This document shows, piece after piece, positions 53,782-61,380 of a stretch of DNA of 64,000 bases. The notes below the pieces were generated by a model. The model was not told where the DNA came from, did not search any database, and worked only from the letters and a program-made list of their open reading frames with translations. Each line of letters starts with the position of its first letter. The stretch's first letter is position 1. This DNA comes from an uncultured delta proteobacterium (GTDB lineage: Bacteria > Desulfobacterota > Binatia > UBA9968). The position numbers and the translations under genes are program-made. The stretch lies in NCBI GenBank assembly GCA_963847445.1, contig CAWJZV010000045.1, positions 96,001 through 160,000 on the forward strand. The letters are read 5' to 3'.

Positions 53782-54676
53782 TTATTTAAACAGGCCGATG
53801 GCCGGCAATGTGGCGAAGACGAAGTCGCTTAGATCGCGATCGGTGACATACAGCGAATAGTGGATACCGCTTTGATGGCAAAAACTGCGCAGCTCGGCAT
53901 TGTGATGGGCCAGCTTAGACTGATAATCGCTGGCGCGCCTCGGCGTTCCACTGATACTTGATTTCCTGCTCGGTCTCGCTGTCGACCAAGGCCAAGCTGC
54001 CGTTGGGAAAGCGCGGATCGACTTCGTGGCGCGACAGGATTTGAATGACGGCGATGTCGAGATTGAAGGCGCGCAGTAAATTCAAGCCGGGCTGATAGGA
54101 TGCCGCCGGCATCAAGAAATCAGAGATCAAGATCGCTTTGCCCGGCCGGCGCATTTTCTTCAAATGGTCGGCCAACGCGGGTGCCAGTTGCAGGGCGCCG
54201 CCTGGGGTTGCCGAGGTGGCGAAGTTGACGCAGTCGGTCATGCGCCGCCGGCCGCGATAGAATGGCGTAGTGTTGGCGCGGCTGTTCTCTTGCAGCAAGT
54301 GCAGCTTCACATGGTCGTGATTGGCGAGAACGACATAGCTCAGCGCCAGAGCGACATGAGTCGCCGGCAGAAACTTCAGTTCCCGCGACGGGTAGCCCAT
54401 GGACGCGCTGGCGTCGATGAAGACATAGGCGAACAGGTCGACTTCTTCGCGAAAAAGTTTCACGTAGAGCCGGTCGGTGCGCGCGTAGATGCCCCAGTCG
54501 AGATAACGCAAGTCGTCCCCCGGCGTGTAACGGCGGTAGTCGGCGAACTCCAAACTGGTGCCGCGCCGCGGCGACGAGTAGCTGCCCGGATGGCTACCGA
54601 GAAATTCCTTGCGCGTGCGCAGGCGCAGAGTTTCCAGCTGAGTGAGAAAGTGCGGTGTGAAGGGGCTGGGCAGCAT
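53782..54676 (-). CDS. DUF58 protein (MoxR-associated family)
   Basis: EFADYRRYTPGDDLRYLDW, DASASM, ISDF. Confidence 0.93.
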
Positions 54677-54690
54677 GTTTTCTATCCAGT

Positions 54691-55386
54691 TTACTCGACG
54701 TAGGCGATGGGGTCGATCACGCCGGCTTGGCTAAATCCTTTGACGCGCAGCTGGCAGCTATCGCATAGGCCGCAGGCGCGGCCATCTTGGCTGGGATCGT
54801 AGCAGCTCCAGGTCAGACCATAGTCGACGCCGAGCTCGATTCCTTTGGCGATGATGGCGGCCTTTGTCATGTGCAAAAGCGGCGCGTGGATTTTCAACCG
54901 GCTTTCACCTTCGACGCCCGCCTTGGTGGCGAGATTGGCCATGGCTTCAAAGGCGCGGATATATTCTTCGCGGCAGTCGGGGTAGCCGCTGTAGTCGAGC
55001 TGATTGGCGCCAAAGAAAATGTCGATGGCGCCGATGCGTTCGGCCAAGGCGAGACCGAAGGACAAAAAGATCGTGTTGCGCGCCGGCACGTAGGTCACCG
55101 GGATGCCCTGGGAGATTTCCGCTCGCGCTGCGGCTTTTGGGCACGTCGATTTGATCGGTGAGCGCCGAACCGCCGATGGCGCGCAGGTCGAAATCGATCA
55201 CCAAGTGGCTACTGGCATTCAAGAAGTCCGCGACGCGCTGCGCCGCGTCGATCTCGCAAGCGTGACGCTGGCCGTAGCGGAAGCTGAGCGCATGAATCGC
55301 GAAGCCGGCTTGTTGGGCGATAGCGCGGCGGCGGTCGCCGAATCGACGCCGCCGCTCAGCAAAACGACGGCAGGTGTGCCAGACAT
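54691..55386 (-). CDS. queC: 7-cyano-7-deazaguanine synthase
   Basis: LSGGVDS, YGQRH, TYVPARN, GYPDC, CGLCDSC. Confidence 0.95.
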
Positions 55387-55389
55387 AGA

Positions 55390-55873
55390 TTAAGAGCGCG
55401 GAACTTTGCTGCCTTCCATGGGGTAGCGTTTCTGATACCAGCCGACAATGCCTTCGTTGAGCACTTTCATGTTGCGATAACCGTTTTCGTGGAGCATGCC
55501 ATAGGCCAGACTGGCCAGGTGATGGGGGCATGCTCAATAGAGTACCACCGGCCGGTCGCGCGGAATGCTTTTTAAATATTCTTTGAATGCTGCCAGCGGA
55601 ACCGATTGGGCGCCCAGGATATGAACTTCGTCGAACTCTTCTTTGGTGCGGACGTCGATAAAGAATCGGTTTAGCGCCAGCTTTGATGTCGGCAATCAGT
55701 TGATCGATGCCGACAAACTCGGGCGTGACATCGGCCGGCAGAGTCTGTTGGGCGATACTCGGGATACTTCGACGGATCGGCATTGGCCGCCGGGCGCGAA
55801 CCCAGCAGGATCAAAGCCAGCGCGAGAGTTGCACGGCGCTACTATATGATATCCGGTCTACGGTTCGCTTCAT
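55390..55873 (-). CDS. Rhodanese-like protein, probable selenoprotein (UGA at 55534-55536), probably exported
   Basis: IDVRTKEEFDEVHILGA...RPVVLY[TGA]ACPHHLASLAYGMLHENGYRNMKVLNEGIVGW in a single frame across the TGA; indels only upstream. Confidence 0.8.
55494..55533 (-). promoter_or_regulatory. Putative bacterial SECIS hairpin
   Basis: Immediately after UGA: GCATGCC...GGCCA-GTC-TGGCC...GGCATGC; apical loop begins with G, 22 nt from the UGA. Confidence 0.65.
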
Positions 55874-56749
55874 GGTTTTAGTCCCTGGGCGGCTATATTT
55901 GCTCATTTGCGCTAACGTATCCAAGGATTGGACGCCGGTGGTACGCTGGCCGTTAATGATCCAGGTCGGATAACTTTTGAATATCCTTCTCCTTGCAGAC
56001 TGCCGCAAGCGGTCCCTGTGCGCCGCCTGGGCTGCACTCGACATAGGGAATGCGCTTGCCTGAGCTGCCGAATAACTGTTTCTGCTCGTTGCAATGCGGA
56101 CACCAGGAGGCGCCGTAAAACTTCGCCTCGGTTTTCGTCAAGTGCTCCGCTAGTCCTTTGATCCAGGGGTCTTCGGGGCCGGGGGCGTTGCCCCAGTAGC
56201 CGGCGAAGTAGAGATGCAGCGCAACGATCGATCGCGGCGCCAACGCCGACGCTCTTGACCTAACCATGGACCCCAGGAAAAGTTCGGCAAGATTCGCCGG
56301 TTTTTGCAGGGTGGTCATGATGAAGATGACCGCCATGAGGCCGAGGGAAGTGAGGCAATAGGGGCAGGCCGCCTTGAGTTCGAAAGAATGATATCGAAGT
56401 CAGGTAGAGACTAAAAAGCAGACCGAAGAGCGAGATCACCCAAGCCCAGCGCCATTGGTTGTCCGCGTAACGGTTCCAAGCCACCGCGGCGAGCAGGCCG
56501 TAGGTTAACAATCCCCAGAACGAAGTCGGCATGCCGAACGAGCGTCGACCATCGGCTGTTCAAGACGACATCGCAGCCGCTGCCTTCGACGCAGAAGGCG
56601 ACGAGCTTCTCCGCCCAGGCGGTGTAGGTGAGATAGGCGGACAAGATCATACCCAACACCGCTAGGGCGAAGAGCGGCCAGTTGGGGCCATCGCGCAGGA
56701 GCGCTTTCGCCGGTTGTTTACCTTTGGATTTTTTCTTGTCGCTAGCCAT
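55870..56749 (-). CDS. VKOR-thioredoxin fusion (disulfide bond formation; indel-broken)
   Basis: FCVEGSGCDVVLNS loop Cys pair, CPYC in TM, Trx domain YGASWCPHC...YVEC...YPTW. Confidence 0.9.
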
Positions 56750-56752
56750 CGA

Positions 56753-57400
56753 TCATCCTTTCAACAGGGTTTCAATATCGTTTCTCAGCCGCGCTAGACC
56801 ATCCATCTCGCGGCTGTCGTAGTAGCCGCGGATCTGCGCTTGCTGATCGATCAAGACAAAGCGCGGGCTATGCGGAATCATGCCGCTCTGCTCGGCGCCA
56901 GAGGGAAACGCCGCGACGCTCAAGTGAAAGCCGTCGCGGACGAGCTTGATGACTTGATCCCGCTGGCCGGTAAGAAAATACCAGCGCTGCCGATCGGCCT
57001 CATGTTTGTCGGCGTAGGCGCTTAGCACTTGCGGCGTATCCCGTTCCGGGTCGACACTGACGGATACGAATTGGACATTAGATTGCGCCGCGAACTCTTT
57101 TTGCAGCTTGGCCATGGCCGCTGTCTGCAAGGGACAGGTGTCGGTGCAGGTCGTATAAATAAAATCGGCGATCCAAATCTTGCCGCGCAGGTCGGCCAGA
57201 TTCACGTCTTTGCCACTGCGTTCGGTCAGTTTGAAATCCGGCACTGATCCATATTGCTTCAAACCATCATCGCCAGCGCGATTGACCAAGCTGATCCGCG
57301 TCTGCGGCCCGAGCTTCAGCCACAGTGCCGTGCCGAGGATCACGCCCATGGCGATGACGGCGGCACCGAGCAGAAAGAAACGGGTTTTCGGATCGTTCAT
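56753..57400 (-). CDS. SCO1/SenC copper chaperone
   Basis: FIYTTCTDTCP, VDPERDT, HSPRF. Confidence 0.93.
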   Translation of the reverse strand: MNDPKTRFFLLGAAVIAMGVILGTALWLKLGPQTRISLVNRAGDDGLKQYGSVPDFKLTERSGKDVNLADLRGKIWIADFIYTTCTDTCPLQTAAMAKLQKEFAAQSNVQFVSVSVDPERDTPQVLSAYADKHEADRQRWYFLTGQRDQVIKLVRDGFHLSVAAFPSGAEQSGMIPHSPRFVLIDQQAQIRGYYDSREMDGLARLRNDIETLLKG

Positions 57401-58165: not shown

Positions 58166-60913
58166 CTAATCCCTCTGGAAAACCGTCACAGCGTTGATAT
58201 CGGATGAGCCGACATAGATATGCTTTCCGCCCGGACTCACTACAACTGCGAAGGCACCGTCGAGCCCCTTGCCGTCGGTACAGCCCCCGCCCGTGCCGTC
58301 GTCGCTCACACAGCCGGCAATGCCGCCGAGCTGAGTCAATTCACCAGTTGTCGGGTTGCGTGAAAATACCGCCACAGCGTCGCTGACGTTCGACGCCACA
58401 TAAACATGCCTACTGTCCGGAGTCACGGCTACAGAGCTGGCACCGGCAAGCCCGTTACCATCGGCACAACTCCCCCCCGTGCCGTCTTCGCTCACGCAGC
58501 CGGCAATGCCGCTGAGCTGAGTCAATTCACCAGTCGTCGGGTTGCGTGAAAATACCGCCACAGCGTTGCTGACGCTCGACGCCACATAAACATGCCTACT
58601 GTTCGGACTCACCGCCACAGAGCTGGCACCGATAAGCCCGTTACCATCGGCACAGTTCCCCCCCGTGCCGTCCTCGCTCACACAGCCGGCAATGCCGCTG
58701 AGCTGAGTCAATTCACCAGTCGTCGGGTTGCGCGAAAATACCGCGATGGCGTTGCTGATGCTCGACGCCACATAAACATGCCTACTGTTCGGACTCACCG
58801 CCACGGAGCTGGCACCGATAAGCCCGTTACCATCGGCACAGGTCCCCCCCGTGCCGTCCTCACTCACACAGCCGGCAATGCCGCTGAGCTGAGTCAATTC
58901 ACCAGTCGTCGGGTTGCGCGAAAATACCGCGATGGCGTTGCTGACGCTCGACGCCACATAAACATGCCTACTGTTCGGACTCACCGCCACAGAGCTGGCA
59001 CCGATAAGCCCGTTACCATCAGCACAGGTCCCGCCGGTGCCGTCGTCGCTCACACAGCCGGCAATGCCGCTGAGCTGAGTCAATTCTCCAGTCGTCGCAT
59101 TGCGCGAAAATGCCGCGATGGCGTTGCTACCAGCCGATGCCACATAGACATGCCGGCCGTCTGGACTCACCGCCGCAGATCTGGGGTCATCCAGCGCTTT
59201 GCCGTCTTCACAGTCAACTCCATCACCAACGTCGGCCACGCAGCCTGCGGGTGCGTCAAGCTGGGTTAGTGCTCCGGTTGTGGCATTGCGCGAAAATACC
59301 GCCAGTGCGGAGCTGCCAGAAGAGGCCACATAGAAATGCTTCCCATCGCGGCTGACGCTCAGCCCTACCGGGCCGATAAATGGTTGCTGTCTACGCAAGG
59401 GCCGTCACCGCTGTCACTCATGCAGTCCGGCCCGTTCAGCTGTGTCAGCACTCCCGTCGTCGGACTCCGGGAAAATTCCGCCACTGCGTTGCGTACCGGA
59501 AGAGGCCACGTAAGCATGTTTGCCGTCGGGACTCAGAGCCATATATCTGTTAGCAACAATTCCCTTGCCGTCAGCGCAGGTACCGCCGGTGCCATCCTCG
59601 CTCACACAGCCGGCAATGCCGCTGAGCTGAGTCAATTCGCCAGTGGTCGGGTTGCGCGAAAATACCGCCACCGCGTCGCCTCCCGACGCCACGTAGACAT
59701 GCCGACCGTCCCGGCTTAGGGCCACGGAAATGGCACCGATAAGTCCTTTGCCATCAGCACAGGTACCGCCGGTGCCATCCTCGCTCACACAGCCGGCAAT
59801 GCCGCTGAGCTGAGTCAATTCTCCAGTCGTCGCGTTGCGTGAAAATACCGCCACGGCGTTGCTGAGTTCTGATGCCACGTAGACATGCCGACCGTCCCGG
59901 CTTAGGGCGACGGATCTGACGCGGCTCAGCCCCTTGCCGTCAGCACAGGTGCCGCCTGTGCCGTCCTCGCTCACGCAGCCGGCAGTCCCGCTGAGTTGAG
60001 TCAGCGCTCCCGTCGTCGGGTTGCGTGAAAACACCGCCACCATGTTGTTGTCCAATGACCCCATATAGACGTGCCTGCCGTCCGGGCTCACTGCCACAGT
60101 CATAGCCCCAATAAGCCCTCCTCTGCCGACAGCACAGGTACCGCCTGTGCCGTCGTGGCTCACGCAGCCGGCAAGGCCGCTAAGCTGAGTCAGCTCTCCA
60201 GTCATTGCGTTGCGTGAAAACACTGCCACCGCTCCGCTGACCCGAGATGCCACATAGAGATTTTTCCCGTCCGGGCTCACCGCCGCAGATTCGCCACCTG
60301 ATAGTCCTCTACCGATGGCACAGGCCCCCCCCGTGCCGTCCTCGCTCACGCAGCCGGCAACCCCGCTAAGTTGCGTTAGCGCCCCGGTCATACGGTCGCG
60401 GGCAAATACCACCACCGAATTGGCCGTGTCGGTTACCGCGTAAACATGTTTGCCGTCCGGACTTACTGTCACAAATTCTGGAGTCACGAGTGCTCGACCA
60501 TCGCCACAGCTTCCCCCCGTACCGTCCTCACTCACGCAGCCTGTCACGTCACTCGATTGCACCAACTTACCCGTTGCTATATCGCGAGAAAACACCGCCA
60601 CTGCATTGCTAAAGTAGGAAGCCACATAAACATGTCTCCCGTCGGGGCTAACTGTTACAGTTTCGGGATACAATAGCGCCCTACCGTCGGCGCAGGTACC
60701 CCCCGTACCGTCTTCACTCACGCAGCCGGCGGTTCCTGGAGGTTGGATCAAAGCTCCCGTGGTCGCTGCCATTCCCGGAGCAACCAGGAAAGATACCAAT
60801 GTTACCGTAACCGCCATCACGACAATCTGAATTCCAGCGCTTGCGAACCAATATTCTTTCAATGTAAAGCTTCCCCGGTGTTTGGTATTTGGTATTCGTC
60901 CAAAGTTCTGCAT
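58166..60913 (-). CDS. Secreted lactonase/YVTN-like beta-propeller protein, 14 repeats of about 62 aa (frameshifted near 59400-59490; start uncertain)
   Basis: Unit TGELTQLSGIAGCVSEDGTGGTCADG..L.....VAVSPDGRHVYVAS..SNAVAVFSRN; hydrophobic N-terminal leader. Confidence 0.85.
58300..59120. repeat. Near-identical 186-bp intragenic tandem repeats
   Basis: CGGCAATGCCGCTGAGCTGAGTCAATT at 58501, 58687, 58873 and 59059. Confidence 0.95.
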
Positions 60914-61024
60914 TCCTGGTCCCCTGTTTGCCTTAAAGTCGTTGATGATGTCTAGATCGCCGTTCCTTTTGACACTTAACGTTTTTGTCTGCAAGAAGTC
61001 ATTAGGGGCAGACGCTATTCGTGA

Positions 61025-61113
61025 ACCCCTATGTCTTGTTCATCGATCACCACCGTGACATTGTTGTTCGAGTGCAGCTCGGCTCCGTATAGTTTCATCT
61101 CGGTATCCTCCTT
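61025..61113 (-). mobile_element. IS110-family transposase N-terminal relic
   Basis: AAGGAGG RBS plus MKLYGAELHSNNNVTVVIDEQD, resembling the IS110 G(I)DLH start; truncated. Confidence 0.7.
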
Positions 61114-61380
61114 CGACCATTAAATTTGATCGCTCTAACTTACGGCCTCCTCGAGAAACCGGATTGATGATTATCAAATGTTTGTAAAACCAATGCCGCA
61201 ACATCGTTGATATTCATGGGACCTCGTTTCCACCGGTAATGCCTATCCACATTACGGGACGGCTAACCGGTGCGGAAGTTGTGCGATCAACCAGTCACGT
61301 AACTGGCATAGAGCAAGGCGTGGACCGATGCATAAAATGGTTACAACTGATGAACCATTCTGTGATTTTACACTATCAAA

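Follow-up and report, generated by a model that had tools for sequence, protein, structure and literature searches.

A putative selenocysteine-containing rhodanese with a U-x-C-P active-site loop, encoded beside VKOR-thioredoxin and SCO1 genes in uncultured Binatia

The DNA analyzed here, which we call the window, is a stretch of 64,000 nucleotides (positions 96,001 to 160,000, forward strand, of contig CAWJZV010000045.1 in assembly GCA_963847445.1) from an uncultured delta proteobacterium of the class Binatia (Desulfobacterota; UBA9968). Its minus strand carries a rhodanese gene with an in-frame TGA at the position of the catalytic cysteine, which a preliminary description of the window had proposed to be a hidden selenoprotein. 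Sequence comparisons across related genomes indicate that this is very probably a real, translated selenoprotein gene, representing a distinct rhodanese subfamily. The gene and the elements within it are the following.

55390..55873, minus strand: putative selenocysteine (Sec) rhodanese coding sequence (CDS); the 5' half is broken here by single-letter insertions.
55534..55536, minus strand: UGA codon (putative Sec), in-frame, at the catalytic Cys column.
55779..55873, minus strand: predicted Sec-type (export) signal peptide, with A-N-A and then D-P-S-K-Y-P-E; frameshifted in the window.
55504..55516, minus strand: apical stem-loop of a putative selenocysteine insertion sequence (SECIS), GGCCA-GUC-UGGCC, 17 nt past the UGA.
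55492..55535, minus strand: full two-tier hairpin from a single-sequence fold; the lower tier is lineage-specific.

On the minus strand, the ATG of the gene occupies 55873-55871 and the TGA 55536-55534, and the terminal TAA ends at 55390. Around the TGA, a single frame reads FFIDVRTKEEFDEVHILGAQSVPLAAFKEYLKSIPRDRPVVLY-TGA-ACPHHLASLAYGMLHENGYRNMKVLNEGIVGWYQKRYPMEGSKVPRS-TAA, the residues before the TGA being ...RPVVLY, and the earlier reading of a minus-strand rhodanese that crosses 55534-55536 with no change of frame was thereby reproduced. The window fragment scores 56 bits against the Pfam Rhodanese model (PF00581; cut-off 22.2), and orthologues without frameshifts encode proteins of about 145-160 aa. 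When aligned with solved rhodaneses, the U column falls on the catalytic Cys (lyCgsGfRs in 6mxv, vyCrtGgRs in 3tp9). The tryptic peptide spanning the Sec column is predicted as ...PVVLY-U-ACPHHLASLAYG....

To assess conservation of the TGA, we searched 41 related genomes and found orthologues in 29 (one of these genomes, G005/L039, is unpublished), every one with the TGA in frame. The preliminary description had read the gene as a UxC rhodanese with Sec as the catalytic residue, and the invariance of the TGA, together with the alignment to solved structures, bears this out. Orthologues were present in the window genome, in 22 of 24 further genomes of its genus (g1), in both genomes of genus g5 and in 4 of 11 genomes of genus g3, and were found in none of those of genera g2 and g4. 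They range from 99% down to 48% identity across the three genera and, with TGA written as U, all conform to L-Y-U-x-C-P-[H/R]-H-[L/M]-[A/S]-[S/R]-L-A-[Y/F]. The first His after U-x-C-P is Arg in genera g3 and g5.

A wider scan, limited to one genome per species and overlapping the 41-genome set, yielded 80 loci. Y-U-x-C-P with TGA was seen at 42 of them, mostly in genomes labelled Candidatus Binatia or, under older labels, Deltaproteobacteria, with three from Rokubacteria/Methylomirabilota. Two loci (L105, L106) encode F-Y-C-G-C-P-H-H with TGC, and 18 belong to the known C-x-U family (Y-C-x-U, in the context Y-C-x-U-x-x-E). The remaining loci comprise one with U elsewhere and 17 ordinary Cys rhodaneses. 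Further Cys forms, with Y-C-A-C-P, came from a profile search of 1.84 billion representatives, in which 7 of the best 150 matches were examined: P0116 (VYCACPHHLSSLAYG), P0180 and P0155. The top ranks of this search are mostly multi-domain rhodanese repeat proteins. Homologues with Cys or TGA at the column had been the anticipated signature of a selenoprotein, and both kinds were thus recovered; the Cys forms and the predicted Sec forms make up the usual Sec/Cys pair at the U column. We also observed a close full-length homologue, P0075 (157 aa), in which F-Y-G-N-R-P-R-H replaces Y-U-x-C-P-R-H; having lost both redox residues, it may be a non-catalytic relative. The distribution of the subfamily is narrow. 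When 301 genomes were drawn evenly from the phylum, just 2 matched at E <= 1e-25, namely the window genome and one other, which also has the TGA.

One alternative is that the TGA is a true stop, giving a truncated protein of ~111 aa, and that the conservation downstream belongs to a separate small gene or RNA. Gene callers do end the gene there: 54 of 57 homologues in the protein database are calls of 89-111 aa that cover 46-47% of the query. Among ten database homologues examined, eight stop at ...LY and one contains a frameshift; the tenth (P0002) runs to full length and has W at the column, which we infer is what a code-4 gene call prints for TGA. Moreover, orthologues do end genes with TGA (e.g. 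L028, L031, L037). However, a product ending at the TGA would lose the active-site loop and the final helix-strand units, i.e. the last third of the rhodanese fold. Beyond the TGA, 47 codons show protein-level conservation across 71 genes, with no change of frame and no indels, and 12 diverse orthologues share 18 invariant columns past the U (C, P, H, L, L, A, G, R, N, M, V, L, E, G, G, W, K, P). No restart or start codon is conserved after the TGA among the orthologues. In the window, the codon immediately 3' of the TGA gives rise to an ATG; this is not conserved, because that codon is variously GCA, GCT, GCG or GCC. Finally, the Cys homologues read straight through the column. These data make a true stop highly unlikely. 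Because 54 of the 57 database homologues stop at the UGA, the subfamily is effectively invisible in annotation, a case of the routine mis-calling of selenoprotein genes as truncated proteins.

A second alternative is that the true codon is TGC or TGT, and that this noisy assembly shows a sequencing error, an assembly error or a pseudogene mutation in its place. The window assembly is indeed error-prone. Frameshifts affect the 5' half of the rhodanese gene, queC, the VKOR gene and SCO1, and elsewhere in the genome there is a TAG within selA, and selB is in pieces. We compared positions 55250-56000 with contigs from other studies, which come from relatives rather than the same strain. Within the 484-nt rhodanese gene there are at least six indel sites relative to these contigs. 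Single letters of the window are missing from them at 55659/60, 55754, 55794/5, 55798, 55805, 55836 and 55893/4, and two letters at 55320, in queC, are dropped by contigs of all four runs compared; there are 20 further differences beyond those listed. Because the other-study contigs leave out single letters there, the local errors are insertions, and on this comparison we attribute the frameshifted 5' half of the rhodanese gene to insertion errors of the window assembly. We note that nearly all genes between 53000 and 58500 of the window are frameshifted. Insertion errors seem to be frequent in this assembly, and uncorrected gene calls in this region are not to be trusted. A 158-nt contig from metatranscriptome X15 covers 55289-55445; we draw nothing on transcription from X15.

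At 55534-55536 itself, no change is found among the differences listed, in short-read contigs from three DNA runs of three studies, several of which span the site. This agrees with the earlier expectation that local errors are indels and do not extend to a false nonsense codon at the TGA. The errors observed are insertions, with no substitutions. In addition, TGA occurs in all 29 orthologues and in the 42 Sec-form loci of the wider scan, many of them from short-read assemblies. The probability that the TGA is an error is vanishingly small, and this explanation is refuted for practical purposes.

Bacterial SECIS elements have been described as stem-loops directly 3' of the UGA, with a small apical loop and a G (PMC1088965). 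The preliminary description pointed to a two-tier hairpin at this place. In silico, 61 nt of the window (55540-55480) fold into such a hairpin at -21.7 kcal/mol, with the apical tier formed by a 5' arm (55516-55512), a loop (55511-55509) and a 3' arm (55508-55504). Across the 29 orthologues, an apical GGCCA-GUY-UGGCC begins 17 nt past the UGA without exception. The apical helix is paired in 99.3% of cells, compared to 17-40% in controls with the partners displaced by 1-3 columns, and its variation is confined to the loop (CUG/UUG) or to G-C -> G-U changes. For the lower tier, pairing drops to 74% of cells, and genera g3 and g5 lack it; it was therefore rejected as a conserved element, being kept only among close relatives. 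Hence the fold was upheld and so was conservation of the apical tier, while conservation of the lower tier was not, and compensatory changes were not seen.

Most Sec-form loci of the wider scan (37 of 42) carry GGCCAGUYUGGCY. The other five (L094, L097-L100; g3-type) have the peptide HLSRLAF and the sequence GUCCAGGUUGGCU, which forms a shifted local hairpin, CCACCU-GUCC-AGG.UGG, with a GUCC loop. It is possible that the two amino-acid changes in this variant re-register the stem, which would be a case of coupled protein and RNA evolution. The two Cys forms (L105, L106) have a similar peptide, HHLSTL, without the apical stem.

More informative is synonymous variation, which we measured in 50 distinct Sec-form genes, drawn from the 71 genes pooled from both (overlapping) searches. 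Ala at +7 is invariably GCC, and Ser at +8 is invariably AGT. Over codons +5 to +10, mean normalized synonymous entropy is 0.17, compared to 0.73 for the other 50 usable columns, which is the lowest value among 51 six-column windows (one-sided Mann-Whitney P ~8e-5, with columns as units).

Most of the machinery for Sec insertion is encoded in the window genome. A selA-selB-selD cluster lies on contig C14 (C14:191492-195726; loci L001, L004, L011, L022), where selA (569.8 bits) and selD (360.3 bits) each score over the cut-off. Beside selA, selB is broken into four frame pieces (22-179 bits), none of which exceeds the cut-off singly. SelD is itself a selenoprotein, with U in the motif SAG-U-AAK, which we take to be the active-site position where SelD has Cys or Sec. 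The genome encodes another rhodanese selenoprotein, of the classical UxxG type (F-T-U-G-S-G-R-Q-S), at C24:161220-161453 on the minus strand (L149:1381-1830). In the order as a whole, selA was found in 38 of 41 genomes. Given that selA is nearly universal, we rejected its phyletic co-occurrence with the rhodanese as non-discriminating.

SelB-dependent insertion of Sec is indicated by four features taken together: the UGA at the catalytic column, the Cys homologues, the Sec machinery, and a hairpin that is under constraint and lies at the distance of a SECIS. In such a scheme, the SelB-type stem-loop within the CDS, 17 nt past the UGA and with a small apical loop starting G-U, would recruit SelB with Sec-tRNA(Sec), and translation would then run on into the conserved C-terminal third of the rhodanese domain.

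Several observations weigh against a selenoprotein. As for the RNA, the shuffled counterparts of the 61-nt sequence fold at a mean of -14.9 (sd 2.65), and 3 of 200 shuffles fold equally well; hence the hairpin of the window sequence taken singly is only moderately above chance (z = -2.57). Among the 29 orthologues, no apical pair is altered on both sides, and 264 of 500 column shuffles reach the observed pairing. Because covariation is silent, the argument for the RNA element is one of conservation and synonymous constraint. An Rfam scan of 54500-57000 returned only a chance-level match to osmY (19.4 bits vs 46.9). As for the machinery, an internal TAG in selA and the splitting of selB are found in the window assembly only; in none of the 37 relatives with a match is selA interrupted by a stop, and both defects are probably assembly noise. 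Neither Rfam nor ARAGORN found an intact tRNA-Sec (selC) in the 48-contig, 91.8%-complete assembly, and only the last 28-29 nt of a tRNA-Sec are present, at C12:77574-77602 (minus strand).

The state of selC is the weakest part of the case. The best Rfam tRNA-Sec matches (45 and 44.6 bits) were rejected because ARAGORN calls them tRNA-Ser or tRNA-Leu, and an 82-nt tRNA-SeC called by ARAGORN at C2:139122-139203 was rejected as coding-like, having no Rfam match at E up to 1. In some lineages selC is embedded in selB, according to a 2026 review (PMC13188914); here, the 6-kb sel locus gave no tRNA in an Rfam scan. The remnant on C12 is identical to the 3' end of selC in relatives and is preceded by unrelated sequence. 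It looks like what remains at an attachment site after an element has integrated into selC, or else like an assembly gap. All five relatives tested have a tRNA-Sec (73-77 bits). Since these relatives have the gene and the assembly is 91.8% complete in 48 contigs, we read selC as probably unassembled or interrupted in the window genome rather than lost. The expectation that selA, selB, selC and selD would be present was thus borne out for selA, selB and selD, and was not for an intact selC in this assembly.

The missing selC, along with the W printed in P0002, would also fit a third alternative, in which the UGA is read as Trp, Cys or Gly through near-cognate or suppressor decoding or a reassigned code. 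Arguing against reassignment, TGA also terminates genes in these genomes. The Sec machinery is general in the order, as judged by selA and by tRNA-Sec in all relatives tested, and a SECIS-like hairpin with synonymous constraint lies at the right position. Homologues moreover hold a redox Cys at the column, the classic Sec/Cys pairing. Readthrough with a residue other than Sec is accordingly improbable.

The preliminary description also noted a hydrophobic leader suggestive of export. This leader is garbled by indels in the window and is clear in intact orthologues (M-K-R...A-x-A|DPSKYPE), whose N-termini consist of M-K/R, a hydrophobic stretch, A-x-A and then a conserved D-P-x-x-Y-P-E. Since the leader contains no twin-arginine motif, the protein is predicted to be exported by the Sec pathway. 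An AF2 model (pLDDT 81, pTM 0.71) shows a helix (residues 3-25), a low-confidence linker (26-31) and a rhodanese beta/alpha domain, for which the top Foldseek matches are rhodanese domains (3tp9, E 6.5e-8). Within U-x-C-P-[H/R]-H, the U, C, P and second His are invariant in 12 orthologues.

The neighboring genes, all on the same strand, are the following.

55870..56749 (approximate), minus strand: VKOR + thioredoxin-like (Trx) fusion (WCPHC), upstream; Pfam VKOR 91.6 bits; frameshifted.
56753..57400 (approximate), minus strand: SCO1/SenC family protein (CxxxC copper chaperone / thiol-disulfide oxidoreductase fold); Pfam SCO1-SenC 104.3 bits.
54691..55386, minus strand: queC (7-cyano-7-deazaguanine synthase), downstream; Pfam QueC 244 bits; frameshifted.

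The TGA stop of the VKOR-Trx gene overlaps the ATG of the rhodanese gene (ATGA), both in the window and in a relative whose sequence is clean, and queC starts 3 nt past the rhodanese stop. In the clean relative, the minus-strand order is a second copy of SCO1, DUF4382, SCO1/SenC, VKOR-Trx, the Sec-rhodanese, QueC, DUF58 and a BatA-like gene. VKOR-Trx and SCO1 are each found upstream in 26 of 29 orthologue loci and in 34 of 42 Sec-form loci; in genus g5, SCO1 is present without VKOR. QueC and DUF58 lie downstream only in the window's genus, g1 (23 of 29 loci). The unusual gene context remarked on earlier was therefore found to be conserved upstream, with SCO1 and VKOR-Trx, and genus-specific downstream, with queC.

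Three side observations concern this neighborhood. In relative G004 (L061:9388-10622), a second SCO1/SenC paralogue and DUF4382 lie directly upstream of SCO1, VKOR-Trx and the Sec-rhodanese. An alignment of 10 VKOR-Trx sequences shows the VKOR CxxC (CPYC) and the Trx WCP[H/A]C, plus two further invariant Cys (one in VECSPGG and one later). Farther away, at 58166-61333 on the minus strand, the window encodes a frameshifted protein of ~1055 aa with ~16 repeats of the form GCVSEDGTGGTCADG...VSPDG(R/K)HVYVAS...AVAVFSRN, and the DNA repeats of this gene give long spurious open reading frames on the opposite strand.

What might such a protein do? Rhodaneses carry sulfane sulfur on their catalytic residue, and VKOR-Trx fusions are DsbB/DsbA-like, quinone-linked disulfide systems. 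We imagine that, after export and cleavage at A-x-A|DP, the loop Y-U-x-C-P-[H/R]-H would place the selenol two residues from a thiol, making a selenenylsulfide-forming site that carries redox equivalents or sulfane sulfur. Sec would accept one atom of sulfur, or else a soft metal such as Cu(I), in an adduct that the neighboring Cys would resolve. In Binatia this would be periplasmic work done together with SCO1 and the quinone-linked VKOR-Trx, which could re-oxidize or reduce the U-x-C pair. Because the gene is translationally coupled to VKOR-Trx and to SCO1, a periplasmic redox relay suggests itself, with the U-x-C pair recycled by the Trx domain, and we put this forward tentatively.

A bolder formulation, which we regard as speculative, is that the protein is a sixth, uncatalogued form of rhodanese selenoprotein, and that Binatia have a selenol relay of their own, periplasmic and quinone-linked, in which it is the catalyst that meets the substrate. 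The Sec-rhodanese would take sulfane sulfur or Cu(I) and form an Se-S bond with the Cys at +2, the Trx domain of the VKOR fusion would recycle it, and SCO1 would be a further partner. If true, the relay would be the rhodanese-based equivalent of a sulfide/thiosulfate:quinone oxidoreductase or of a pathway for copper-site maturation.

These functional proposals face three difficulties. Outside Binatia (L091, L101, L102, L104, L107), the SCO1 and VKOR neighbors are absent. The genes found beside the rhodanese there are mutually unrelated (NicO, isochorismatase, NMT1, asparaginase, Rho and cytochrome c554). In addition, the active-site loop does not have the CxxGxR signature of the active sulfurtransferases with which it aligns.

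A related alternative accepts the selenoprotein and assigns it to the handling of copper or another soft metal, with U, C and His of U-x-C-P-H-H forming a Cu(I) site that exchanges with SCO1. SCO1 is the most widely conserved neighbor (g1, g3 and g5), and in g5 it occurs without VKOR. The U, C, P and second His are the invariant residues of the loop, a NicO-type metal transporter lies nearby in Rokubacteria, and U-x-C motifs occur in metal transporters, e.g. the Cu/Zn efflux transporter of the SO_0444 family (as given in PMC13188914). On the other hand, the first His is Arg in g3 and g5, and SCO1 proteins are also thiol-disulfide oxidoreductases, which makes this neighbor non-discriminating. 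We also know of no rhodanese that acts as a copper chaperone. A copper role thus seems doubtful, although it would be compatible with the U-x-C selenoprotein itself.

Several consequences would follow from this selenoprotein. Binatia, an uncultured lineage of soil and sediment, would be seen to use selenium in the periplasm. The link of a Sec-rhodanese to SCO1 and VKOR-Trx offers a testable hypothesis of a new periplasmic pathway for redox, sulfur or copper chemistry. In addition, the compact and highly conserved SECIS hairpin could improve selenoprotein gene finders in these lineages.

We then compared the protein with known rhodanese selenoproteins. The table of the 2026 review gives five forms: UxxS, UxxG, CxU (NF041203), a further UxxG, and UxxxxU (TsoB) (PMC13188914). 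A U-x-C rhodanese is not among the forms tabulated there. Our literature searches found no paper pairing Binatia with selenocysteine, and a search combining rhodanese, selenoprotein and VKOR gave a single, irrelevant match. The main texts of deep-Sep and BSepDB do not mention rhodanese, and their supplements may list the U-x-C-P-H-H family.

Of the named models, NF041203 (rhodanese_LYCAU, the third form) scores best. Its members are likewise single-domain proteins with a Cys/Sec pair two residues apart in the same loop. However, the window fragment scores 53.9 bits and three full-length orthologues 55.1, 61.4 and 52.3 bits, well below the cut-off of 115. NF041203 has a catalytic Cys with Sec at +2, whereas here the positions are swapped, with the predicted Sec catalytic and Cys at +2. 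The residues after the motif also differ, being x-x-E-H-T-S-A-R-A in NF041203 and P-[H/R]-H-L-A-S-L-A-Y here. No protein of the window genome scores over the NF041203 cut-off.

The first, second and fourth forms (UxxS and the two UxxG forms, named rhodanese-related sulfurtransferase and first found in Sargasso Sea / GOS data), which can be compared by their listed motifs, also have Sec in place of the catalytic Cys. They keep U-x-x-G-x-R or UxxS with no Cys at +2, unlike the present protein with its U-x-C-P-[H/R]-H, predicted signal peptide and SCO1/VKOR context. That Sec rhodaneses are already known in general, as the preliminary description acknowledged, is confirmed by these UxxS and UxxG forms. 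A U-x-U variant of a rhodanese-related sulfurtransferase was reported in 2007 from an Olavius symbiont metagenome (PMC1976440). As in our case, Sec is at the first position of a pair two residues apart. This variant, as described in that paper, has two Sec and is regarded as a variant of the C-x-U family (PMC1976440).

TsoB (NF045694) resembles our system in its logic, a Sec-rhodanese domain being tied there to a membrane thiol-disulfide module, much as the Sec-rhodanese here is coupled to VKOR-Trx. Scores against the TsoB model are 15.7-34.8 bits (cut-off 805). TsoB is a fusion with two Sec (UxxxxU) and a reducing, DsbD-type partner, whereas here we see a separate single-domain protein with one predicted Sec, and the partner is the DsbB-like, quinone-linked VKOR. 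PspE and GlpE share the fold, size and aligned catalytic column, and PspE is likewise exported. They are Cys-based, without a Cys at +2 or P-H-H, and their models give 19-35 bits here, compared to cut-offs of 102-126.

Collectively, these comparisons place the predicted U-x-C-P-[H/R]-H protein as a new subfamily or variant among known rhodanese selenoproteins, one that mirrors the C-x-U form. With a catalytic Sec and a resolving Cys at +2, it would complete the series of C-x-C, C-x-U and U-x-U, allowing one to ask, position by position, why selenium is used over sulfur. The principle is known, while the family is unannotated and its context suggests a periplasmic pathway. The novelty lies in the U-x-C-P-H-H subfamily and its genomic context, and not in Sec at the catalytic position, which is known from the UxxS and UxxG forms.

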